Below, piece by piece: positions 18,674-28,734 of a DNA stretch of 64,000 nt; position 1 is the first letter of the stretch; every line of letters starts with the position of its first letter. Below the pieces are notes generated by a model. The model was not told where the DNA came from and did not search any database. It saw nothing but the letters and a program-made list of their open reading frames with translations. Location: NCBI GenBank assembly GCA_963664225.1, contig OY760937.1:4096001-4160000 (forward strand), given 5' to 3'. The position numbers and the translations under genes are program-made. The stretch is from Verrucomicrobiia bacterium (GTDB lineage Bacteria; Verrucomicrobiota; Verrucomicrobiia; Limisphaerales; UBA1319).

Positions 18674-18819
18674 GACTTTTTCGCGTTTGCTGAACCATTG
18701 GATGATTGGAAAGGTGCGACTGCGCTGGATTTACGGGCGAGGAATGAGGGGGAGATAGCGCTCTGGAAAATTACTTTGCGAGGGGCCTCGGGTGTATTAG
18801 GCTCATGCACATCAAATCC

Positions 18820-19833
18820 ATGAAAACGAATCTCTTCAAACTGTGGGGCGTGATCTCTTTGCTCGCCGCCTTGAATTTACATGTGCAAGCGGCTCCCGGC
18901 GTTGTGTATGAAGGCAAGGCAGGCCCGGGCCTGGGCAAGCACATCGTCTTCCTGGCAGGTGACGAGGAATACCGGTCCGAGGAGGGCCTGCCCCAGATGG
19001 CCCAAATTCTGGCCAAACGCCACGGTTTCAAATGCACTGTTCTTTTCTCCATCGACCCCACCAACGGGACCATTGCGCCCACGGCTCAAAGGAACATTCC
19101 CGGACTGGAGATTCTGCCCACGGCGGACATGGTGGTGATGCTGCTGCGCTTTCGCGAGTTGCCCGATGATCGCATGAAGTATTTCGTGGATTACCTCAAT
19201 TCCGGGAAACCCATTCTGGCTCTGCGCACTTCCACGCATGCCTTTGCCTACGAGGCCAATAAACAGAGTCCCTACGCGAAGTTCGATTACCGCAGCAAGG
19301 AATGGCCCGGCGGTTTTGGACAGCAGGTGCTCGGGGAAACGTGGGTCGATCACCATGGTTCGCATGCCAAGGAAAGCACCCGGGGCATTCTCGCCGAGGC
19401 CTTCAAAACCCATCCCATTCTCAAGGGCGTCGATGACATCTGGGGTCCCACGGATGTCTATACGGTGACGCATCTGCCCAAGACCGCGCAGGTACTTGTT
19501 TATGGCCAGGTGCTTGCAGGGATGAAGCCGACCGACAAACCGGTGTCCGGCCCCAAGAACGATCCCATGATGCCGGTTGTCTGGATGCGCGAGTATCGGG
19601 GGGATTCGGGTAAAACCGCTCAGATCATCACCACCACCATGGGCGCCGCCAACGATCTCGAAAGCGCGGGTCTGCGCCGATTGCTGGTCAACGCCTGTTA
19701 CTGGGCCACCGGTTTGTCGAACCAGATTCCAGCCAGCGCGAATGTCGATCTTGTTGGGGAGTATCACCCGACCAATTTCGGATTCGACAAAGGCATCAAA
19801 GGCGTCAAGCCCGAGGATCTGGCCTGGAAATAA
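18820..19833 (+). CDS. Secreted ThuA-like (class I glutamine amidotransferase-like) domain protein
   Basis: Signal peptide; GDEEYRSEE, LRTSTHAF, HPILKGV, TTTMG..LRRLLVNACYWA. Confidence 0.75.
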   Translation: MKTNLFKLWGVISLLAALNLHVQAAPGVVYEGKAGPGLGKHIVFLAGDEEYRSEEGLPQMAQILAKRHGFKCTVLFSIDPTNGTIAPTAQRNIPGLEILPTADMVVMLLRFRELPDDRMKYFVDYLNSGKPILALRTSTHAFAYEANKQSPYAKFDYRSKEWPGGFGQQVLGETWVDHHGSHAKESTRGILAEAFKTHPILKGVDDIWGPTDVYTVTHLPKTAQVLVYGQVLAGMKPTDKPVSGPKNDPMMPVVWMREYRGDSGKTAQIITTTMGAANDLESAGLRRLLVNACYWATGLSNQIPASANVDLVGEYHPTNFGFDKGIKGVKPEDLAWK

Positions 19834-19866
19834 AGGAAACGAGATTAGCGTTCCGGTCCCGGTTTG

Positions 19867-19979
19867 GGTTGACCGCTGGGGTGGTTTTCGGTTGACCGCA
19901 GGGGGTGAGACTGGGTTGACCGCACCGGTTGACCGTTGGGTTGATTTTGGGTTGATCGCTGGTCAACCGGGTTGATTGC
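19867..19979 (+). repeat. Irregular GGTTGA(CCGC) repeat cluster
   Basis: Direct copies at 19867, 19890, 19914, 19927, 19939, 19950, 19970; inverted copy at 19961. Confidence 0.75.
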
Positions 19980-20006
19980 TGGAAACTTTGGCGGAGAGCG
20001 GAAACC

Positions 20007-20206
20007 AGAGGTCTGAGATCAGCGGTCAGAGGTCAGTGGAAGAAAGCGGAGGCCGAAATTAACAGGAATGGGCAGGATGGGGGGGATTAACCACAAAGAA
20101 CACATAGATCCCAAAGAACCGCCAATGAACGGGAAAAAAAACCACAGGGGCACAGAGGCACGGAGAAGGAAAATTCACATGGATGGGCAGGATTAACAGG
20201 ATGGGG
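20007..20206 (+). repeat. Cluster of short 7-9-nt period repeat modules
   Basis: AGAGGTC heptamers; AACCACAAAGAACACATAGATCCCAAAG; AACCACAGGGGCACAGAGGCACGGAG; CACATGGATGGGCAGGATTAACAGGAT. Confidence 0.7.
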
Positions 20207-20258
20207 ACCGGACTGCTGGGAGGTTCTGAGAAAAAGAGGTCGTGAGGAAGTTCAAATG

Positions 20259-20353
20259 TTTGAATGAAGAAACCTGAGCCGCCGCTGACTCGCGGGACGC
20301 GTGGATTGCAACCGGAGCGCGATGGCCGGGTCCGCCGCAGCGCATGGTTCTGC
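20259..20353 (-). other. attC site, degenerate (R' ATT instead of GTT)
   Basis: GCAGAAC...CGCGAGTCAGCGGCGGCTCA-N9-ATTCAAA just after the phosphoesterase stop. Confidence 0.6.
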
Positions 20354-20361
20354 ATTGCTGG

Positions 20362-21201
20362 TCATGCTCGATCCAAGTGAAACAAGGTGATCTCAGGCCG
20401 CGCGTTGAACCGCACGCGCAACAGGTGCCCAACACCGCGATTAATGTACATCCTGCGTCCTCCAGAAAGCGTGAACTCTCCTGAGGTGTACCGCTTGTTT
20501 CGAACCGGCAACAGTGGAGGCGGGAGAAATGGAGGCTTGCACTGACCCCCGTGGGTGTGCCCGGCCAGAATCCATCCTCCGTATTCCCCCCAACCCGGTT
20601 TATCGACTGTGTCAGGATTGTGGCTCAACACGAGGGAGGCTTGTTGCGGATCGAGGGTTGCCAGCGTTCGTTCCGGGTCGAAGCGACGCGCCCACAAATC
20701 ATCCATTCCGGCAACCTGTAGGCCTTCGACGGCGGCAATCTCATTCCGCAGCACTCTCACCCCGGCGGACAGCGCCAATGCCGCAATCGCGTCCGCGACC
20801 TCAGGATGTGCCCATCCGGGGCCATAGTCGTGGTTCCCCAGGATGCCCAAGGTGGCCAGGTTACCCAACGGCAACTGGGCAAAAACGCGACCGGCATGTG
20901 CGAGGATGTTGCTGTCATAGCTGGTCAAATCGCCGGTATAAACCACGATCTCGGGGGCGAGGTCCCTGACCCGCTTAAAGATCTGCATGAGATAGGCATC
21001 CTCAACGCGTGGGCCGATGTGAAGGTCGCTCAACTGCACCAAACGTGCATCTTTCAGCCGGTCCGGAAGGTGCGCCACCGGGAGTCGGTGTTCGACGACC
21101 TCCACCCAGTGAGGCTCCCAGCGCCAGGTGTACACGCCCACGCCCAGCCCGAGACCGGATGCGACTGCCGTGGCTCGCAGGAATTGACGACGGGTGATCA
21201 T
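20362..21201 (-). CDS. Calcineurin-like metallophosphoesterase (YkuE/YaeI-like), integron cassette
   Basis: SDLH, TGD, GNHD, SHNPD, GHTHGGQ motifs; TRRQFLR leader. Confidence 0.9.
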   Translation of the reverse strand: MITRRQFLRATAVASGLGLGVGVYTWRWEPHWVEVVEHRLPVAHLPDRLKDARLVQLSDLHIGPRVEDAYLMQIFKRVRDLAPEIVVYTGDLTSYDSNILAHAGRVFAQLPLGNLATLGILGNHDYGPGWAHPEVADAIAALALSAGVRVLRNEIAAVEGLQVAGMDDLWARRFDPERTLATLDPQQASLVLSHNPDTVDKPGWGEYGGWILAGHTHGGQCKPPFLPPPLLPVRNKRYTSGEFTLSGGRRMYINRGVGHLLRVRFNARPEITLFHLDRA

Positions 21202-21227
21202 GCAGACAGGGGCTTTGTGGGCATCAT

Positions 21228-21452
21228 GCGGAACGGAGAAAGGGGAGCCACGCGGAAACCATGGCGTGGTAAAGCTGAAAACTCAGGCGCGGAACGGCCA
21301 GCGTCAATGAAGGCTGGCTTCCGCGATTTATCAGGTGGTGTCATTTTGGTATCCATTGATATTCAATGCCTGATGCTTCGATTATCCAGCGATGCCCGAA
21401 TTGTGACCGGCCTGAACGGCTGGCTCCCGTACACTCCACGCTCTGGTTCAGC
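21228..21452 (-). other. Abnormally long or disrupted attC site
   Basis: Left arm GCTGAAC..GGGAGCCA at about 21421-21452; right arm TGGCTCCC..GTTCCGC at about 21228-21250. Confidence 0.45.
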
Positions 21453-21462
21453 ATTTTGGGGG

Positions 21463-22050
21463 TTATCGTTGAAAGGGTTGGGTAACTGCCACAGCCAACT
21501 CATGAGGCACGGCGGGATGAGCATTGCAAATGTCGTCGGCTGTGACGTGGGGCAGCGACGGCTGATGCTGGCGAATGGTGCGGATAATGCCGGAGTCTAG
21601 AGCCAAGAGCTGTTCAGTGAGACAACACGCGGAACGATAGCTCTCAACGTCAGCGTACCAGTCTGAATAGAGATGCTCACGCATGTAGCGAATCGAGAAA
21701 TGTGTGGCCAAGCCTTCGTCCAAGACTATGGTTCTCTGTTCGCCAGACGGTGACAGAAGGTGGACGGCCTCGTGCGCCATCTGAAAACACGCACGCTCCA
21801 TGTCGGTCGCGCATGCTGGACTAATCTGAACGACAACGTGGCCGCAATTTCCTGGATACCAAATCTGTGGAATGTTCCCGCCGAACTCAACACCCAAAAG
21901 TGTGTAGTTCCGGACACATGGGCCGTAGAGTTCCTGAGCAATGCCGAGGATGTGACCGAGACGAGAAGCAAGAGTCCACGTCCAGCCAGTGCCACTGGGG
22001 AGGGGTCTAGCATACAAAAGGTCGGTCTCAAATTGGACGTTTGCGATCAC
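21463..22050 (-). CDS. HExxH zinc metallopeptidase-like cassette protein
   Basis: MAHEAVH followed by LDEGLAT; the longer ORF start runs into an attC, so GTG at 22050 was chosen. Confidence 0.65.
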   Translation of the reverse strand: MIANVQFETDLLYARPLPSGTGWTWTLASRLGHILGIAQELYGPCVRNYTLLGVEFGGNIPQIWYPGNCGHVVVQISPACATDMERACFQMAHEAVHLLSPSGEQRTIVLDEGLATHFSIRYMREHLYSDWYADVESYRSACCLTEQLLALDSGIIRTIRQHQPSLPHVTADDICNAHPAVPHELAVAVTQPFQR

Positions 22051-22064
22051 GGGTTCAAATAAAT

Positions 22065-22190
22065 CCCGAAAGGAAAAAGTTGAGCCACAGGCATCGTGAG
22101 CCAGCACAACCAATAAAAGAAAACATAATGAAAAAGCAAAACTCGAAACAGCAAGGCGCAATGCCCGTTGGCTCCCGCGTCTTGTTAGGC
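22065..22190 (-). other. attC site (126 bp, R' TTT instead of GTT)
   Basis: GCCTAAC..GAGCCAAC...GTGGCTCA-N9-TTTCGGG. Confidence 0.7.
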
Positions 22191-22265
22191 CACAGGGTCA
22201 TCGCCGCACCATCCAAACAAGAATAGAACCGGGCGGCGCGTGAGGACTCCAAGGCGCTGGAATCT

Positions 22266-22550
22266 CTACCCACAAGTAAGCTCCTTGTTGAGGTTTCGAA
22301 TGGCGTCATTCCAGCTAAACGTCCTAAAAAAGGGAAGCCAATTCGGCGGCGCAATAAAGCGATGACCGCTACCCTCCCTCCAAATCGGAACAACCGTGCC
22401 GGCAAGACCGGCGGAACTGGCGCAAGCCTGTAACCTGGATATGCTGTCATGCTGGTCACTCTCGGACTTGTATCCGAACGATGAATCGAGCGGGATGACT
22501 ATGAGGTCAATACCCTGCTCCCTGATGTGTGCGATTTTGTATTGCGACAT
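22266..22550 (-). CDS. Hypothetical cassette protein (94 aa)
   Basis: ORF bounded by attC sites; cassette start GCTAGGCCACA complements end TGTGGCCTAAC. Confidence 0.75.
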   Translation of the reverse strand: MSQYKIAHIREQGIDLIVIPLDSSFGYKSESDQHDSISRLQACASSAGLAGTVVPIWREGSGHRFIAPPNWLPFFRTFSWNDAIRNLNKELTCG

Positions 22551-22571
22551 AAAATATAAATGCGCTTTGTG

Positions 22572-22670
22572 GCCTAGCGCCGGAACTCACACGCGCTGGG
22601 CCAATGATGTGAACCGCGAAATCGGTACTGAGTGCGCCATCCGGCGCTGGCTGTAGTGATCCCGTTCGGC
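22572..22670 (-). other. attC site (99 bp, R' GCT)
   Basis: GCCGAAC...GCTAGGC with internal dyad symmetry; related to the 99-bp attC family at 62-64 kb. Confidence 0.75.
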
Positions 22671-22688
22671 TGCAAATTCGTCATACTC

Positions 22689-22856
22689 TCACTTCTCGCT
22701 CTCGCGCATCTTGCGCACAGCCTGCTCAGCGGCAGCGGCAAGACGCTCATGTGCACTCATCGCTCGCCAGCCAACAACCATCCAGAAGATCGCTGAAAAT
22801 ATCGCGGCGAGAATCGCAAACATTGCGAGCGCGCCACCTGATGCGTTTATGTTCAT
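22689..22856 (-). CDS. Small single-transmembrane cassette protein (55 aa)
   Basis: MNINASGGALAMFAILAAIFSAIFWMVVGWRAM; lies between two attC sites. Confidence 0.65.
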   Translation of the reverse strand: MNINASGGALAMFAILAAIFSAIFWMVVGWRAMSAHERLAAAAEQAVRKMRESEK

Positions 22857-22886
22857 AATGTAAAAATGGACTCGATGTGACTTGCG

Positions 22887-23012
22887 GCCGAACGACCGAG
22901 CTCGCGCACCACCAGGTGAGCGCCGACAACGAAAATGAAGGGAGCAGCCGAAAAACCAGAAGCGACAAAACTGAGGCGTCCACGGTTGATGCGTGCAACG
23001 ACCTGGTTGGGC
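22887..23012 (-). other. attC site (126 bp)
   Basis: R'' GCCCAAC and R' GTTCGGC, both intact. Confidence 0.85.
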
Positions 23013-23025
23013 CACATAGCTCGTT

Positions 23026-23328
23026 TCATTGGTGCATCAAAATCGTCATAGCGATATATCCCAAAAGGAACTGAAGTGCAAAAATGGCGATAGCAATCAA
23101 TGCCAGCTTACTCTGACGAACCCCAAAAAGAATTAGCGAGATAACCGTGCAAATAATCGTGACAGGCAAAGTGCAGACCACCACCGCAAATGCCGAAATG
23201 CTCGGATGATGACCTGTGAATATCTGGCAAAGCGCGATGGCCATCGTCACAAAACTGATGCTGGCGCAAACAAACGCGACCAAATTCGCACTTGCCGCGA
23301 ACGACTGACTCTTGGAACTCGATGTCAT
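23026..23328 (-). CDS. Three-transmembrane cassette protein (100 aa)
   Basis: Hydrophobic ORF between attC sites. Confidence 0.7.
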   Translation of the reverse strand: MTSSSKSQSFAASANLVAFVCASISFVTMAIALCQIFTGHHPSISAFAVVVCTLPVTIICTVISLILFGVRQSKLALIAIAIFALQFLLGYIAMTILMHQ

Positions 23329-23348
23329 ACGTTTTGTGGTGTCATGTG

Positions 23349-23441
23349 GCCGAACGACCCGGCTCAGGCAGGCAGGGCCAATGGTGTTCAATTGCCATCC
23401 GAGATGCGAACCCGGCCTTGCCTGCAGTCGGCTGGTTCGGC
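23349..23441 (-). other. attC site (93 bp)
   Basis: GCCGAAC..CAGGC...GCCTG..GTTCGGC imperfect palindrome. Confidence 0.88.
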
Positions 23442-23460
23442 CACATTGTGACGGCCGATT

Positions 23461-23646
23461 TCATGTGTAGTTGATGTTGCCAAAACCAAGGAATGAGCGG
23501 CAGTGAGGACACAAGAGAAACTGCTTCCGTTCAATGAACCCGATTCCCTTGGATTTTACCCAGATGAACTTCAGTTCTTTCTTGCAGTGGGGGCAGATAG
23601 GCCAGACGTCATCTGGCGCTTCCTGAATATCGAGCTTCTTAGGCAT
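23461..23646 (-). CDS. Zinc-ribbon mini-protein, first cassette (61 aa)
   Basis: Two CPHC motifs; AAGGAG ribosome binding site. Confidence 0.75.
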   Translation of the reverse strand: MPKKLDIQEAPDDVWPICPHCKKELKFIWVKSKGIGFIERKQFLLCPHCRSFLGFGNINYT

Positions 23647-23660
23647 ACATTGTCTCCTTT

Positions 23661-23680
23661 GCCGAACTTTGGTTATACGA
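23661..23680 (-). other. attI-like primary recombination site
   Basis: GTATAACCAAAG|TTCGGC with no attC hairpin upstream; resembles attI1 CTAAAACAAAGTT; its core complements the R'' of the first cassette. Confidence 0.65.
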
Positions 23681-23760
23681 CGGTCGGTTCATTGATCCCA
23701 GCCGAAGAATCTGTCGTCCTTTTATTCGCAAGCTATTCATTAGCAATTGCTCGTTTCCTT

Positions 23761-23790
23761 GATATAGGACCTCCGGTTCGTTTATTGCAA
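23761..23790 (-). promoter_or_regulatory. Candidate cassette promoter (Pc)
   Basis: TTGCAA-N18-TATATC about 100 bp upstream of attI, facing the cassettes. Confidence 0.4.
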
Positions 23791-24019
23791 GTCGGATCAC
23801 GTCATTGGCACGCATTTCTCCGTGCATAATTGCAGGGTGTGCTTCGATGGGAAAGCCGTCAAGCGGTTAGTGGAAGAATAATGATCAGGGGAGGCGGCAT
23901 TCAAGCGCTTTCCGTCAAAAGTTTAAAGATGCAGGGAAAATGTATTCGCAAGAAAGAAAGGCGGTGACATTCAGGACGACGATTTTCAGAATCCGGGGTT
24001 GTGAGTATTGCATCTGATT

Positions 24020-24120
24020 CAACTCCTTCGGAGTAGGTTTGGTGTGTTGGGGGCGATTACCCCGGGTAGGCCTCGGCGGGCAACCCGGGGCTGAATGATT
24101 GCAACCCGTTCCGGGTTGCC
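24020..24120. repeat. REP-like hairpin group
   Basis: ACTCCTTCGGAGT, CCCCGGGT...ACCCGGGG and CAACCCGTTCCGGGTTG hairpins. Confidence 0.6.
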
Positions 24121-24250
24121 GGGAGGATGGGGAAGAACAGCGATGAAAAAAGAATTAACATGGATGTGCAGGATGAACAGGATGGGGGGGGAAGAGGAAT
24201 GGATAATGGACAATGGAAAATTAGGGTCCCGGGTCCCGTCCTAAAATAGG

Positions 24251-24637
24251 TTGTCCCTAATGAGACAACAAAACAGTGTTCGAAGGGTGGGGATACGGTA
24301 CAGTGAGTCGTTTAAAATGGCTGTGGTTCGGGAGCTGGAAGAGGGCGAAATGTCCTTTGAGGCGATGCGGCGAAAGTACGGCATAAAGGGCACGGGCACC
24401 GTCCAAAAGTGGGCTCGCAAGTACGGCAGGGGCGATTTAGGAAAGGTCATACGCGTGGAAACACCTAAAGAATTCAATGAACGGGATCAAATGAAGAAGC
24501 GAATCAAGGCTTTGGAGAAAGCGTTGGCCGATGCGCACATCGATCTGGCGATCGAGCGTGCCACCATCCAAGTGGCCTGCGAACGGGCGGGGATTAAGGA
24601 TGTGGCGGAGTTCAAAAAAAAAGTGGCTGGGAAATAG
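24251..24637 (+). CDS. IS3-family OrfA (helix-turn-helix)
   Basis: RYSESFKMAVV..KWARKYG; ends over an A9G slippery run. Confidence 0.9.
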   Translation: MSLMRQQNSVRRVGIRYSESFKMAVVRELEEGEMSFEAMRRKYGIKGTGTVQKWARKYGRGDLGKVIRVETPKEFNERDQMKKRIKALEKALADAHIDLAIERATIQVACERAGIKDVAEFKKKVAGK

Positions 24638-24675
24638 CCCATTGTGCGGTCAGGGGAGGTTCGGCGGATCAGGAG

Positions 24676-25512
24676 GTGCCGGTCAAAGGGGTGTGTCGCC
24701 GACTGGGGATGAGCCGCCAGAACTTCTATGCGGGGCGCACGCGGCGGATGCGCAAGAAAGTGGAGGGCGACCTTGTGGCGGATTTAGTGCGTCAGGAGCG
24801 CAGGAAGCATCCGCGGATCGGGGCGCGAAAGCTCCACAGGACGATCAAGCCAGCCCTGGAAAAGGCCGGAGTAAAAATGGGGCGGGACCGCCTGTTTGAA
24901 GAGTTGCGAGAGCGGGATTTGCTGGTGCCGCCGCTGCCCCGGCAATGGCCCCAGACAACCCATTACAATCCCAGTTTGCCGGTGTTTCACAATGAGATCA
25001 AGGAACGGGAGGTGAAGCGGGCCAATGAGGTTTGGGTGGCGGATATGACCTATGTGCGGACCGACGAGGGTTTTTTATATGTGTCGCTGATCACGGATAA
25101 GTATTCGCGCAAGATCGTGGGTTTCCATGCCGATGAGACGCTGGAAACCAGGGGGACGCTTGAGGCGTTGGAGATGGCGCTGGCGGCACTGCCCAGGGGA
25201 TTCAATCCGATCCATCATTCGGATCGTGGCTGTCAGTATGCCAGTCATGAGTATGTGGATCGGTTGAAGTTGGGCGGCCTGTCCATCAGCATGACGGAGG
25301 AGGATCATTGCGCGGAGAATGCGATGGCCGAACGGGTCAACGGCATCCTAAAGCAGGAGTATGGCATAGGGTATGGATTTAAGACCAAGGCGCTGGCGCG
25401 CAAAGTAATCAGTCAGGCTGTCAATCTCTACAATACGCGCCGATTGCATACGGCATTGAATTACCAGGTGCCCGAGGCCGTTCACATCCGGGGAACCGTC
25501 GAGTATAACTAA
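24676..25512 (+). CDS. IS3-family OrfB DDE transposase
   Basis: WVADMTY, HHSDRGCQY, ENAMAERVNGILKQE, YNTRRLH. Confidence 0.93.
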   Translation: MPVKGVCRRLGMSRQNFYAGRTRRMRKKVEGDLVADLVRQERRKHPRIGARKLHRTIKPALEKAGVKMGRDRLFEELRERDLLVPPLPRQWPQTTHYNPSLPVFHNEIKEREVKRANEVWVADMTYVRTDEGFLYVSLITDKYSRKIVGFHADETLETRGTLEALEMALAALPRGFNPIHHSDRGCQYASHEYVDRLKLGGLSISMTEEDHCAENAMAERVNGILKQEYGIGYGFKTKALARKVISQAVNLYNTRRLHTALNYQVPEAVHIRGTVEYN

Positions 25513-25728
25513 GAAGCCATACCGGCCTGAGAGGGGAGGGTCCGCGCCACAGTGCCCCTTCGGGTCCACTACGGCATTGGCACTTCGTGCCAAAGCCTCC
25601 GTTCCCCCGAAGGGGCACTGCTCTCCTCCTGAAGGTGTGGGACAGTAGGAAGATTCCCTCCGACCGGAAACCGAAAGAAATAAGACTCAGGAAAAAGTGA
25701 CAAATTTAAACCAGGACTTGACCATAGG

Positions 25729-26115
25729 TTGTCCCTAATGAGACAACAAAACAGTGTTCGAAGGGTGGGGATACGGTACAGTGAGTCGTTTAAAATGGCT
25801 GTGGTTCGGGAGCTGGAAGAGGGCGAAATGTCCTTTGAGGCGATGCGGCGAAAGTACGGCATAAAGGGCACGGGCACCGTCCAAAAGTGGGCTCGCAAGT
25901 ACGGCAGGGGCGATTTAGGAAAGGTCATACGCGTGGAAACACCTAAAGAATTCAATGAACGGGATCAAATGAAGAAGCGAATCAAGGCTTTGGAGAAAGC
26001 GTTGGCCGATGCGCACATCGATCTGGCGATCGAGCGTGCCACCATCCAAGTGGCCTGCGAACGGGCGGGGATTAAGGATGTGGCGGAGTTCAAAAAAAAA
26101 GTGGCTGGGAAATAG
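25729..26115 (+). CDS. IS3-family OrfA, copy 2
   Basis: Protein identical to 24251-24637. Confidence 0.9.
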   Translation: MSLMRQQNSVRRVGIRYSESFKMAVVRELEEGEMSFEAMRRKYGIKGTGTVQKWARKYGRGDLGKVIRVETPKEFNERDQMKKRIKALEKALADAHIDLAIERATIQVACERAGIKDVAEFKKKVAGK

Positions 26116-26153
26116 CCCATTGTGCGGTCAGGGGAGGTTCGGCGGATCAGGAG

Positions 26154-26990
26154 GTGCCGGTCAAAGGGGTGTGTCGCCGACTGGGGATGAGCCGCCAGAA
26201 CTTCTATGCGGGGCGCACGCGGCGGATGCGCAAGAAAGTGGAGGGCGACCTTGTGGCGGATTTAGTGCGTCAGGAGCGCAGGAAGCATCCGCGGATCGGG
26301 GCGCGAAAGCTCCACAGGACGATCAAGCCAGCCCTGGAAAAGGCCGGAGTAAAAATGGGGCGGGACCGCCTGTTTGAAGAGTTGCGAGAGCGGGATTTGC
26401 TGGTGCCGCCGCTGCCCCGGCAATGGCCCCAGACAACCCATTACAATCCCAGTTTGCCGGTGTTTCACAATGAGATCAAGGAACGGGAGGTGAAGCGGGC
26501 CAATGAGGTTTGGGTGGCGGATATGACCTATGTGCGGACCGACGAGGGTTTTTTATATGTGTCGCTGATCACGGATAAGTATTCGCGCAAGATCGTGGGT
26601 TTCCATGCCGATGAGACGCTGGAAACCAGGGGGACGCTTGAGGCGTTGGAGATGGCGCTGGCGGCACTGCCCAGGGGATTCAATCCGATCCATCATTCGG
26701 ATCGTGGCTGTCAGTATGCCAGTCATGAGTATGTGGATCGGTTGAAGTTGGGCGGCCTGTCCATCAGCATGACGGAGGAGGATCATTGCGCGGAGAATGC
26801 GATGGCCGAACGGGTCAACGGCATCCTAAAGCAGGAGTATGGCATAGGGTATGGATTTAAGACCAAGGCGCTGGCGCGCAAAGTAATCAGTCAGGCTGTC
26901 AATCTCTACAATACGCGCCGATTGCATACGGCATTGAATTACCAGGTGCCCGAGGCCGTTCACATCCGGGGAAGCGTCGAGTATAACTAA
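26154..26990 (+). CDS. IS3-family OrfB, copy 2
   Basis: Identical except T>S near the C-terminus. Confidence 0.93.
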   Translation: MPVKGVCRRLGMSRQNFYAGRTRRMRKKVEGDLVADLVRQERRKHPRIGARKLHRTIKPALEKAGVKMGRDRLFEELRERDLLVPPLPRQWPQTTHYNPSLPVFHNEIKEREVKRANEVWVADMTYVRTDEGFLYVSLITDKYSRKIVGFHADETLETRGTLEALEMALAALPRGFNPIHHSDRGCQYASHEYVDRLKLGGLSISMTEEDHCAENAMAERVNGILKQEYGIGYGFKTKALARKVISQAVNLYNTRRLHTALNYQVPEAVHIRGSVEYN

Positions 26991-27201
26991 GAAGCCATAC
27001 CGGCCTGAGAGGGGAGGGTCCGCGCCACAGTGCCCCTTCGGGTCCACTACGGCATTGGCACTTCGTGCCAAAGCCTCCGTTCCCCCGAAGGGGCACTGCT
27101 CTCCTCTTGAAGGTGTGGGACAGTAGGAAGATTCCCTCCGACCGGAAACCGAAAGAAATAAGACTCAGGAAAAAGTGACAAATTTAAACCAGGACTTGAC
27201 C

Positions 27202-27585
27202 GGAAGGTAGATAAACATGCCGCTCCGCTGGAGCTTGGATTTCGTTGTTTGTTGGATATCTATAAACATGCCACTCCTACGGAGTTTCTGATTGCGGTCC
27301 GCCGGGCGGGGACGCCCGGAACATCTGCAGACGAGGACGCCCGCGATGCAAGGGGATGCCGCGAGAAAGGGTCCGACCATAGGATGGTGCGGTTATGGGT
27401 TCAGATGGACGATGAAAAGGGTGGGTGAATGCGGTCTTGAATGGACAATGGAGAATTGACAATTGACCGGCGGTTTGGAAGGTAGATAAACATGCCGCTC
27501 CGCTGGAGCTTGGGTTTTGTCGTTGTTCGATTTCTATAAACATGCCACTCCTACGGAGTTTCTGATTGCGGTCCGCCGGGCGGGG
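27202..27585 (+). repeat. Two ~110-bp direct repeats (27202-27311, 27477-27585), each a REP doublet
   Basis: ATAAACATGCCGCTCCGCTGGAGCT and ATAAACATGCCACTCCTACGGAGTT in each unit. Confidence 0.85.
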
Positions 27586-27592
27586 GAAAGAC

Positions 27593-27721
27593 TTAACCAC
27601 AAAGAACTCAGAGAACGCAAAAAGAACGCAAAAAATACAAAGTAGATAACCACGAAATAAGGAAATACGCGAAAAAGGGGGGAAGGGAGAACCGCTAATT
27701 AACGGTAATGGTCGCTAATAA
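27593..27721 (+). repeat. Cluster of AACC-led triplet repeat modules
   Basis: AACCACAAAGAACTCAGAGAACGCAAA; AACCACGAAATAAGGAAATACGCGAAA; AACCGCTAATTAACGGTAATGGTCGCTAAT. Confidence 0.65.
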
Positions 27722-27801
27722 TTGCGGGGATGGTTGGTGAGTTTTTTAAATTCGAGGCTTTTCACGGGGCGGGAAATGGGTTTTATTGTCCGGCACGTTT
27801 T

Positions 27802-28734
27802 ATGACGAAGACGGCACTTTTATTTGCAGGACAGGGCGCTCAGGCGGTCGGTATGGGGCGCGACCTGGCGGAGAATTTCCCGGGGGCGCGGGCGTTGTTC
27901 GATCGCGCGAACGCGGTGCTGGGGTATGATCTGGCGAGGGTTTGTTTTGAGGGGCCGGAGGGGCTGTTGACGAATACGGGGAATGCGCAGCCGGGGATTT
28001 ATCTGGTGAGCTGGGTGGCGATGCAGTTGCTCCAGGAGCAGGCGCCGGGGCTGCGTTTTGAGGCGACGGCGGGGTTGTCGCTGGGTGAGTTTACGGCGCT
28101 GGCGGCGGGCGGGGCGTTGAGTTTCGAGGATGGATTGAAGCTGGTGCGTCAACGTGGGTTGCTGATGCAGGAGGCGTGCGAGGCGACGCAGGGGGGGATG
28201 GCGGCGATCATTAATCTGGATGAGGCGGCGACGCTGGGGGTTTGCGCGGAGGCGGGGGTGGAGCTGGCGAATTTGAATTGTCCGGGGCAACTGGTGATTT
28301 CGGGGGCGAGCGCGGGGATTGCGGCGGCATGCGAGCTGGCGAAGGCGCGGGGGGCGAAGAGGGCGCTGCCTTTGACGGTGGCGGGGGCGTATCATTCGCG
28401 TTTGATGGCGGGCGCGCAGCCGGGGTTGGAGGCGGCGCTGGAACCGGTGGCGGTGGCGCGGCCGAGGGTGACGGTGGTGTCCAATGTGACGGCGCAGCCG
28501 CATGAGGGTTCGCAGGAGATCAAGAAATTGCTGGTGGCGCAGGTGACTTCCCCGGTACGGTGGGAGGCTTCGATGCGGTATTTGCTGGCGCAGGGTTTCA
28601 CGCGGTTCATCGAGTTGGGGCCGGGAAAGGCGCTGAGCGGGTTTATGAAACGGATTGACGGCGGCGCGCAAATGTTCAATGTGGCCGATGCGGCGAGTCT
28701 GGCGGCGACGGTGGAAGCGCTGAGCCGGGATTGA
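27802..28734 (+). CDS. fabD: Malonyl-CoA:ACP transacylase
   Basis: FAGQGAQ, GLSLGE nucleophile motif, AGAYHS, SPVRW. Confidence 0.95.
   Translation: MTKTALLFAGQGAQAVGMGRDLAENFPGARALFDRANAVLGYDLARVCFEGPEGLLTNTGNAQPGIYLVSWVAMQLLQEQAPGLRFEATAGLSLGEFTALAAGGALSFEDGLKLVRQRGLLMQEACEATQGGMAAIINLDEAATLGVCAEAGVELANLNCPGQLVISGASAGIAAACELAKARGAKRALPLTVAGAYHSRLMAGAQPGLEAALEPVAVARPRVTVVSNVTAQPHEGSQEIKKLLVAQVTSPVRWEASMRYLLAQGFTRFIELGPGKALSGFMKRIDGGAQMFNVADAASLAATVEALSRD

Follow-up and report, generated by a model that had tools for sequence, protein, structure and literature searches.

Strings of co-oriented, purine-rich repeat modules in a Verrucomicrobiia genome resemble single arms of small-gene cassettes

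We analyzed a stretch of 64,000 nucleotides of a Verrucomicrobiia genome (the window), in which strings of ~30-nt, purine-rich modules share their unit types with the inverted arms that flank GxxExxY genes in related genomes. The reading that we prefer, with a probability of roughly 0.6, is that the modules are single, gene-less arms of palindrome-bounded small-gene cassettes and have multiplied as non-autonomous selfish DNA. New here are the solo module strings, their polarity and their targeting by an insertion sequence (IS). The cassette family is widespread but barely described. In many phyla, few multi-copy genes of unknown role are as common as those for GxxExxY and four-helix-bundle ('23S IVS protein') proteins, and the only published frame that we found for them is the rRNA intervening sequence (IVS). 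In this genome the arms alone occur in hundreds of copies, as co-oriented mosaics with strand asymmetry, which shifts the emphasis from an RNase III stem towards interspersed DNA repeats.

Modules were present in all four segments in which a sequence-only reading had reported them (20007-20206, 24152-24222, 27440-27466 and 27593-27721), and their purine richness on the + strand was confirmed at 0.72, 0.76, 0.70 and 0.71, respectively. A purine content of at least 0.70 on either strand was reached by only 0.8% of 10,067 intergenic 130-nt windows of the genome. Tandem Repeats Finder placed 7 of its 34 rows for the window (score at least 30) inside the modules' 427 nt out of 64,000, with periods of 7, 9, 8, 9, 7, 7 and 11. 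The family consensus bore out the proposed AAC/AACC leader with about three 8-9-nt units, the layout being a leader, about three units and then a G-rich linker (for example, TTTTAACC-ACGGAT(nnn)x3, TTAACC-GCAAAGA(nn)x3, TTAAC-ATGGAT/CAGGAT(nnn)x3 and GAACC-GCTAAT...). Between copies, the unit cores are conserved and the spacers vary. The three recurrences that had been reported also exist, with 91% identity over 35 nt (20172/24153; the 20057 copy reaches 66%), 86% over 29 nt (20087/27593) and 94% over 18 nt (24205/27440). All 10 profile-detected modules of the window are on the + strand, and they lie between protein genes, outside 23S rRNA, as solo arms that have no partner arm and enclose no gene. 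No GxxExxY or four-helix-bundle domain was found among the 22 ORFs of the region, and no Rfam match in 19000-28500. Palindromic or self-complementary structure was looked for in the modules and was absent, and, folded as single strands, they do not surpass shuffled sequences (z +1.37 and +0.70). The features of the region 20006-27721 are listed below; the likely start of fabD is at 27802, ~80 nt downstream of the last module.

20006..20036, + strand: heptamer module with CAGAGGT/CAGCGGT units, family F8 (21 genome copies), a four-helix-bundle-type arm; like the CAGCGGT arms at a PF05635 gene (L085)
20057..20086, + strand: degenerate CAGGAT-type module, 66% to the reference copy
20087..20116, + strand: TTAACC-leader module with CA(A/T)AGA units, family F4 (38 copies); like the CACAAAGAA-type arms at a GxxExxY gene (L038)
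20141..20171, + strand: AACC-leader CACAGAGG module, family F7 (2 copies); like the CACAGAG arms at a GxxExxY gene (L035)
20174..20204, + strand: CATGGAT/CAGGAT module, family F1 (104 copies); like the CAGGAT arms at GxxExxY genes (L021, L026, L020)
24155..24185, + strand: CAGGAT module, F1
24198..24221, + strand: AATGGA(C/T) heptamer module, F5 (50 copies), directly adjoined by the left end of the IS
24229..27201, + strand: two tandem IS3-family copies (orfA/orfB, rve domain), with the 3' end of the F5 module as insertion point
27202..27311, + strand: first of two copies of a 110-nt REP-like element containing two small hairpins, within a 275-nt tandem duplication
27437..27470, + strand: AATGGAC/AATTGAC heptamer module, F5, lying in the 275-nt duplication and paralogous to 24198-24221
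27477..27585, + strand: 110-nt REP-like element, second copy
27593..27621, + strand: TTAACC-leader CACAAAGAA-type module, F4
27612..27647, + strand: GAACGCAAAA units of period 11, single genome copy; like the ACGCAAAA-type arms at a GxxExxY gene (L037)
27649..27681, + strand: AACC-leader CACGAAAT-type module, F9, single genome copy; like the C(A/G)CGAAAT arms at GxxExxY genes (L017, L018, L041)
27686..27720, + strand: AACC-leader CGCTAAT module, F2/F10 (33 and 9 copies); like the CGCTAAT arms at a GxxExxY gene (L022)

The kinship to cassettes rests on loci that carry the genes. We compared 28 GxxExxY loci, 27 from relatives and the one of this genome (one of 29, with an N run, was skipped), and found inverted-repeat flanks upstream and downstream of the gene in 26, better than in all 30 shuffles. 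These inverted repeats measure 18-76 nt, and their unit types include CAGGAT, CGCTAAT, CACGGAT, CGCAGAT, CACAGAG, CACAAAGAA, C(A/G)CGAAAT and ACGCAAAA, which are those of the window. Inverted arms, mostly heptamer runs, were also found at 23 of 29 four-helix-bundle loci. The earlier suggestion that similar motifs flank genes of both families holds. The arms of GxxExxY genes resemble the AACC-leader modules with 9-nt units, and those of four-helix-bundle genes resemble the heptamer runs. Two arm classes, one per gene family, the shared AACC leader and an IS that targets one class offer handles on the system; a further one is this closed genome, dominated by the solo form.

A complete cassette would begin with an arm, a (TT)AACC leader followed by some three imperfect units of 7-9 nt, placed immediately upstream of a small gene. 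The gene would encode a GxxExxY protein of the PD-(D/E)XK nuclease fold or an Avd/S23p-like four-helix-bundle protein, and the reverse complement of the arm would lie downstream, as in ORF-bearing 23S rRNA IVSs. Passages of one report describe the helix-45 IVS of Coxiella burnetii 23S rRNA as holding an S23p ORF, and such IVSs as sporadic, selfish-like elements with a PF05635 S23p/four-helix-bundle gene flanked by terminal inverted repeats that pair into a ~28-bp stem (PMC4990558). Arm lengths in the present loci are 26-41 nt in this comparison. The gene-bearing cassettes likewise have a small four-helix-bundle (PF05635) gene between inverted repeats, whereas the window modules are outside rRNA and have neither partner arm nor enclosed gene. 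Those passages do not mention tandem arms of 7-9-nt units, GxxExxY cargo or solo strings in intergenic DNA. With IVS-type cassettes (PF13366/PF05635) the window modules share the build of the arms and the unit types seen around genes in relatives; a reverse-complement partner arm and an enclosed GxxExxY or four-helix-bundle ORF are absent from the window. An IVS proper lies in helix 25 or 45 of 23S rRNA and is excised by RNase III; because each module is a solo arm, excision of an RNase III stem does not apply to it.

The GxxExxY and four-helix-bundle genes are each present once in this genome, at 1.79 and 3.55 Mb. They carry other unit types (CACAGAT and CTCAGCC), and no resident protein was tied to the abundant module families. 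This would fit a gene-bearing form that is nearly extinct here, while its arms persisted and multiplied as gene-less, partner-less modules of ~30 nt. A lost partner arm was searched for within 200 nt of the strings, and only 1 of 170 scored at least 24, equal to shuffles; descent from complete hairpins by local decay is thus at most putative.

The modules were also abundant beyond the window. A family profile search of the whole genome returned 293 non-redundant modules in 174 strings, and 277 of the 293 are intergenic, although intergenic DNA makes up 16.5% of the genome (by crude, ORF-based gene calls). The families have 9 to 104 copies each with a constant order of cores. The strings are mosaic in composition; 62 of the 66 multi-module strings are uniform in orientation, and adjacent modules within 3 kb share their orientation in 169 pairs and oppose each other in 10. 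Modules pile up head-to-tail much as REP units build BIMEs. Neither a side nor a direction relative to genes is preferred: where the genes at both ends of a gap share a strand, the string runs sense in 44 cases and antisense in 42, and the strings divide among divergent, tandem and convergent gaps as gap length would give. In the cassette-arm reading they behave as non-autonomous selfish DNA, indifferent to promoter or terminator side and to gene orientation. As intermediate forms, inverted arm pairs that enclose no gene number four in the genome, against ~280 solos.

These counts bear on the suggestion that the modules are slippage-generated low complexity of no common origin. The units are indeed short and tandem, and Tandem Repeats Finder matches of period 7 have an intergenic density ~7 times that of coding DNA, but the layout is fixed, the core order is constant among the copies of a family, and two gene families have modules as their matched inverted arms. 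Moreover, a 22-nt three-unit pattern with 51 occurrences here recurred elsewhere in the order, in 9 of 60 further genomes (reversed controls 0-1), and a 12-mer, GATGGACAGGAT, with 48 occurrences here in 22 of 30 relatives (reversed control 0-1), counts that favour this genome since the profiles were built from its own copies. Slippage is refuted by this cross-genome conservation and retains almost no probability. Fixed flanking layout and conservation also rule out a simple-sequence contingency repeat. The modules account for purine-rich intergenic low complexity in the annotation of Verrucomicrobiota.

The census also weighs on the proposal that the modules are att-like marks of an insertion/excision system which delimit a cassette island and share the orientation of integron core sites. 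F1 modules in direct orientation do stand on either side of a 3.9-kb low-coding segment (at 20174 and 24155), and an attC-like imperfect palindrome, which is not a module, lies at 23344-23446. However, F1 has 104 copies genome-wide, with 54 same-orientation neighbour pairs spaced 150-3000 nt apart, so that such bracketing is expected in module-rich neighbourhoods; recurrence is no peculiarity of the flanks of the island. None of the 11 PF00589 tyrosine-recombinase matches of the genome falls within 4,096,001-4,160,000, the window's contig coordinates, and the modules have no attC-like palindrome, the link to integrons coming down to a 3-nt resemblance (GTT/AAC). As integron attC sites the modules were rejected, having no self-complementarity, paired core sites or adjacent IntI-type recombinase. 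Filled versus empty alleles and target duplications at modules were looked for and none was found. Genome-wide recurrence, the missing recombinase and the lack of palindromes largely refute the att-like reading, which we consider highly improbable, and such strings should not be taken for integron or att relics.

What sets the modules apart in this genome is their polarity. The strand bias noted in the window is real, but orientation follows local GC skew rather than genes or the island. It agreed with the GC3 skew of long genes for 112 of 124 strings (Fisher p 6e-20), with the raw skew at +-5 kb for 151 of 170, and with an orientation-balanced coding skew for 115 of 134 strings, or 55 of 66 at the level of neighbourhoods. 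Agreement was 85-100% in each of six large families, 51% for genes and 60% for the GGTTGACC repeat. With the purine-rich strand on the locally G-rich strand, this points to a strand-specific, replication-linked step in spread or retention, so that the polarity may reflect replication. The skew landscape is atypical (76% of 50-kb windows positive, 1.3-3.7 Mb flat, dnaA at 2.99 Mb), and equating the G-rich with the leading strand is for this reason only an assumption. In relatives the polarity was not reproduced: 15 loci with uniformly oriented, unpaired modules were concordant with the skew in 6 cases and discordant in 9, at an absolute local skew of at most 0.054 and with 5 of 20 loci set aside as paired or mixed.

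The step that sets the polarity could differ from the one assumed in the cassette-arm reading. In a variant of it that we hold to be doubtful, complete hairpins or cassettes would integrate randomly, and replication would then eliminate whichever arm has its pyrimidine-rich strand on the G-rich strand, leaving one-armed remnants. Orientation-dependent contraction is established for tandem repeats, as in triplet-repeat instability in E. coli. Pairs dominate in one relative, G010, where 11 real CAGGAT sites comprise 6 pairs and 5 solos, whereas pairs are rare here; and the four-helix-bundle gene of this genome lies between co-oriented, not inverted, arrays. On the other hand, no ghost of a lost arm was found within 200 nt, and modules that go against the skew show no greater decay than those that follow it (median 25.5 versus 24.5 bits, p 0.34).

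It is also conceivable, though we would not favour it, that what spreads is the ~30-nt, non-palindromic, single-strand module itself, copied beside existing modules by a replication-fork process. Copying would act at the AACC leader or the G-rich linker, by single-strand insertion into one template strand or by template switching between forks; it would need no dedicated transposase, and the orientation of a mosaic string would record fork direction. If true, this would amount to mobile DNA at its most minimal and would imply a DNA-level rather than RNA-level life cycle for GxxExxY and four-helix-bundle cassettes.

A further explanation, somewhat less probable again, takes the modules as polar elements selected by the host, either chromosome-architecture or protein-binding arrays in the manner of KOPS or Chi, or trans-acting RNA-level elements, with three phased 6-nt cores, variable 3-nt spacers and an orientation kept relative to replication. 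The conserved cores between variable spacers, the agreement with GC3 skew and the persistence of words across the order (22/30 relatives) all agree with it. Selection by the host sits poorly, however, with the gap in copy number between this genome and relatives, about ten-fold or more, and with the absence of strings beside the orthologous genes examined in relatives (8 regions on the upstream side of fabD, 6 on the downstream side of the ThuA-like gene). The modules are scattered very unevenly over the chromosome, leaving many 100-kb bins without any, and they are strictly intergenic, unlike KOPS or Chi; nor is there a gene-side bias or single-strand folding beyond shuffles.

Whatever their own movement, the modules also act as landing pads for other mobile DNA. 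The IS3-family element uses the AATGGA-type (F5) module, at its 3' end, as a landing site: an F5 module adjoins the left IS end in 4 of 4 full-length copies, and the second tandem copy in the window lacks about its first 15 nt. The idea of empty footprints or target sites therefore stands in part, since the modules hold no gene and one IS lands on F5; its tie to integrons does not. The 24197/27440 module pair, which had seemed to bracket the island, is explained by the 275-nt tandem duplication split by IS insertion. IS elements that target REP sequences are known, for example IS1397, and likewise prefer a short interspersed repeat in a fixed relative orientation; here, the target is a heptamer array that is not palindromic, and an IS3-family element is what lands on it.

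The short tandemly repeated repetitive (STRR) heptamers of heterocystous cyanobacteria are likewise tandem runs in intergenic DNA, in genomes rich in these small genes; a link between them and GxxExxY or four-helix-bundle cassettes would be hypothetical.

The closest parallel among dispersed repeats is with REP, BIME and REPIN sequences, which are mobilised by RAYT (Y1) transposases (PMC3116915, PMC6006769). Both kinds are short intergenic repeats in hundreds of copies, with mosaic arrays, dispersed singlets and a related gene between inverted copies. REPs are individually palindromic and the modules are not, and the module-associated genes encode a PD-(D/E)XK-fold protein and a four-helix bundle instead of HUH enzymes. 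None of the nine Y1_Tnp genes of this genome is flanked by modules (one has a single module ~450 nt away); they carry other hairpin REPs. A strand-specific logic is to be expected from single-strand transposition at the lagging-strand template, and REP words of this genome are comparably polar: a word flanking two RAYT-like genes shows this polarity in 21 of 23 cases.

We mapped the modules, purine-rich tandem-unit repeats of about 30 nt, in the window of the Verrucomicrobiia genome G000, which is a single contig of 5.78 Mb with 56% GC. The modules occupy four segments (S1 to S4) spread over two long intergenic stretches.

Modules and neighbouring features in the window.
18805-19833, + strand: ThuA-like gene, preceding S1
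19860-19985: GGTTGACC repeat array, between the ThuA-like gene and S1
20006-20204: S1, after the ThuA-like gene and the GGTTGACC array and before the 3' end of the YaeI-like gene
20362-21201, - strand: YaeI-like metallophosphoesterase gene, its 3' end facing S1
24155-24221: S2, directly ahead of the two tandem IS3-family copies
about 24229-27201: IS3-family element, two tandem copies
27437-27470: S3, between the IS3-family element and fabD
27593-27720: S4, between the IS3-family element and fabD
from 27802: fabD (by homology), then fabG, acpP and fabF

The longest fabD ORF begins at 27730 and homology to FabD only at the ATG at 27802, which is probably the true start, about 80 nt past the last module. 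The make-up of the modules was as the sequence-only reading had described it, with 70-76% purine on the + strand and two styles. Modules of the first style consist of a (TT)AACC leader followed by about three units, each with a conserved core of 6-7 nt and 2-3 variable bases, and those of the second style are heptamer runs. The three recurrences of module types that it had named within the window were all borne out. One of them, between 24197 and 27440, has a simple origin: a 275-nt unit, made up of an AATGGA-type module, a 110-nt REP-like element and a spacer in that order, is tandemly duplicated, and the IS has inserted into the first unit, separating its module from its REP-like element.

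To expand the set of modules, we built iterative nhmmer profiles seeded with the window and genome copies.

Module families in G000, with repeat unit and number of copies.
F1: CAGGAT, 104 copies
F5: AATGGA, 50 copies
F4: CA(A/T)AGA, 38 copies
F3: CACGGAT, 35 copies
F2: CGCTAAT, 33 copies
F8: AGAGGTC, 21 copies
F6: CGCAGAT, 17 copies
F10: second CGCTAAT type, 9 copies

Three module types of the window have only 1-2 copies each in G000. After removal of overlaps, these profiles yielded 293 modules in total. The modules are therefore not a local bracket of a cassette island, as had been proposed, but a genome-wide population. Of the 293, 277 were intergenic by gene calls that we made from ORFs and codon usage, with intergenic sequence making up 16.5% of the genome. 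Modules no more than 150 nt apart were grouped into strings, giving 174 strings, 66 of them with 2-6 modules. Orientation was uniform in 62 of these 66, and neighbouring modules up to 3 kb apart had the same orientation in 169 pairs and opposite orientations in 10. The composition of the strings was mosaic: F1 and F3, and F6 and F2, were often adjacent, in variable order.

We then analyzed the genes that the sequence-only reading had named as neighbours of similar motifs in other genomes. G000 holds a single gene of each kind, GxxExxY (PF13366) and four-helix-bundle (PF05635), and both are flanked by arrays of the module kind with other unit types. In loci from 30 relatives, we compared the upstream arm with the reverse complement of the downstream arm, using 30 shuffles each. 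Inverted arms beating all 30 shuffles were found at 26 of 28 usable GxxExxY loci (1 of 29 was skipped) and inverted arms at 23 of 29 usable four-helix-bundle loci, which bears out this association. The upstream arm of GxxExxY has the purine-rich AACC orientation and often comes as close as 11-60 nt to the conserved domain, and the downstream arm terminates in GGTT(AA). The unit types of the GxxExxY arms cover every 8-9-nt type of the window, and the four-helix-bundle arms are mostly heptamer runs (CAGCGGT, GGCGAAT). The two module styles of the window therefore match the two gene families. Slippage alone, which would generate such repeats as simple low complexity, is ruled out by this cross-genome conservation and the fixed layout.

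Gene-less hairpins, consisting of an arm, a short loop and an inverted arm, were present in many relatives. In one of them, G010, 6 of 11 genuine CAGGAT sites were paired and 5 were solo; G000 has only four gene-less inverted arm pairs. When we searched within 200 nt of the G000 strings for a partner arm, 1 of 170 scored at least 24, equal to shuffles, and no gene was found within the window modules. Each module of the window is thus a solo arm. A passage in a report on Coxiella (PMC4990558) describes a 23S rRNA intervening sequence (IVS) with a 28-bp terminal stem around an S23p ORF, cut by RNase III. On the best reading of our results, the modules derive from IVS-type cassettes or are left over from them, and are non-autonomous. 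They would now act as REP/BIME-type interspersed repeats that are tolerated in intergenic DNA alone, disregard the direction of genes and pile up as co-oriented mosaics. As far as we searched, with subscription journals largely outside the search, we found no published description of solo strings, or of arms built from tandem units around genes of either family; the literature found included work on IVS and on REP/RAYT.

Other roles of the modules were considered. No Rfam family matched 19000-28500 at E <= 1, and the strings folded no better than shuffled sequence (z +1.37 and +0.70). A promoter role was rejected, as a consensus scan gave 2 promoter-like sites vs 5.0 expected, and so was a terminator role, as the terminator-like sites fall in the REP-like element, outside the modules.

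We analyzed the orientation of the strings relative to genes and to GC skew. In same-strand gene gaps, 44 strings were sense and 42 antisense. Divergent, tandem and convergent gaps contained 49, 86 and 27 strings, respectively, a split that tracks total gap lengths. The purine-rich strand of the strings was the locally G-rich strand in G000 (concordant strings).

Concordance of string orientation with local skew in G000.
Raw skew, +-5 kb, strings masked: 151/170, Fisher p 6e-25
Coding-only skew, balanced + vs - genes, +-10 kb: 115/134, Mann-Whitney p 2.6e-18
Balanced coding skew, same-orientation strings <=20 kb apart merged: 55/66, Fisher p 1.4e-6
GC3 skew of long, high-scoring genes, leaving out 46 strings with too little flanking sequence: 112/124, Fisher p 6e-20

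The strand bias noted from the sequence was real in that it follows local skew; string orientation bore no relation to flanking genes. The + strand of genes of either orientation was G-richer near + strings than near - strings, and concordance was 85-100% in all six large families. For comparison, it was 51% for genes >1.5 kb and 60% for the GGTTGACC repeat. Some other repeat words were also polar: CCGGCTAATCGC, located in hairpin REPs flanking two of nine Y1_Tnp (RAYT-like) genes, was concordant in 21 of 23. No extra degeneracy was found in skew-discordant modules. The polarity was not reproduced in relatives, where only 6 of 15 loci were concordant (15 of 20 fetched had uniform unpaired modules), with skews <=0.054 on short contigs.

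G000 has an unusual skew landscape. In 76% of 50-kb windows the + strand is the G-rich one. Skew is strongly positive between 3.7 Mb and 1.3 Mb, on the arc that crosses the coordinate origin, and flat over 1.3-3.7 Mb; dnaA is at 2.99 Mb. Given this skew and the position of dnaA, we only infer, from general knowledge, that the G-rich strand is the leading strand. Orientation may be set by a strand-specific step, most simply one tied to replication. Two candidates for this step are insertion in one orientation and orientation-dependent loss of one arm. Insertion, or a clean deletion, is slightly favoured by the absence of ghost arms and by discordant copies being no poorer in quality than concordant ones. 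Loss of one arm is favoured by paired forms being rarer in G000 than in G010.

We searched for filled and empty alleles at the strain level and found none: the window sequence was unchanged in runs X1 and X3, and runs X4 and X5 gave short pieces only, identical save for one base in one piece. A joint from 20207 to 27447, with 39 letters between, was rejected as an allele; it is a paralogous string, matched by eye to about 4439446-4439486. The best fabD relative in metagenome contigs had 75% amino-acid identity, so there were no close strains among these contigs, and the 80 metagenomic fabD loci (373 kb) contained just 2 module matches. In species representatives, the regions beside the orthologous genes (8 preceding fabD, 6 following the ThuA-like gene) held no strings, and synteny there was not conserved. 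One relative, G011, has a reverse CACGGAT-type module upstream of fabD. The strings might instead have been kept for a function selected in the host. This is less likely, because copy number is very variable among relatives, strings are missing beside the orthologous genes examined, metagenomic matches are this few and distribution along the chromosome is patchy.

The ends of the IS3-family element are inverted and read GGTCCCGTCC... and ...GGACTTGACC. Its full-length copies lie in the window and at ~852506, ~5017506 and ~5531818 (0.85, 5.02 and 5.53 Mb), and in 4 of 4 an AATGGA/AATTGAC module directly adjoins the left end of the IS with its 3' end. These copies share 99-100% identity, and the modules next to them vary from site to site; the module is therefore target context, outside the IS. 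The window copy is a head-to-tail tandem pair, the second lacking ~15 nt of its left end.

The proposed likeness to integron core sites was not upheld, as the window has no integrase and the modules have no palindromic sites. Elsewhere in the window, an attC-like imperfect palindrome lies at 23344-23446, with related sequence at 22877-22908 and no integrase gene in the window. The region 21400-24000 contains 2.6 kb of small minus-strand ORFs with a low host-like coding score.

Arrays of the GGTTGACC(GC) unit occur genome-wide as well as in the window. The perfect palindrome TCAACCGGTTGA was found 40 times in the genome vs 0.3 expected; it showed no skew polarity, and its co-location with module strings was not significant. 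The idea that GGTTGACC/TCAACCGGTTGA palindromes are empty sites was not supported, as 5 of 41 loci lay within 300 nt of a string, against 3.0 on average and at most 8 for random placement. A RAYT was likewise rejected as mobiliser of the modules; the nine Y1_Tnp (IS200/RAYT-like) genes of G000 each lie amid their own hairpin REP family (e.g. 5281463, 4419312, 3264070, 2905976). At 27202-27585, the 110-nt element of the 275-nt duplication forms a pair of small hairpins (GCTCC-GCT-GGAGC and ACTCC-TAC-GGAGT). Hairpins related to these lie on both sides of the Y1_Tnp gene at 2207283-2207627 and make up an array at 2.566-2.568 Mb. Another hairpin repeat, at 24060-24125 (…AACCCGGGGCTGAATGATTGCAACCCGTTCCGGGTTGCC…), has family members that follow the Y1_Tnp gene at 3202520-3202861. 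The bin containing this hairpin, 24010-24443, includes the start of the multi-copy IS and had several-fold higher depth in contigs, consistent with a multi-copy repeat.
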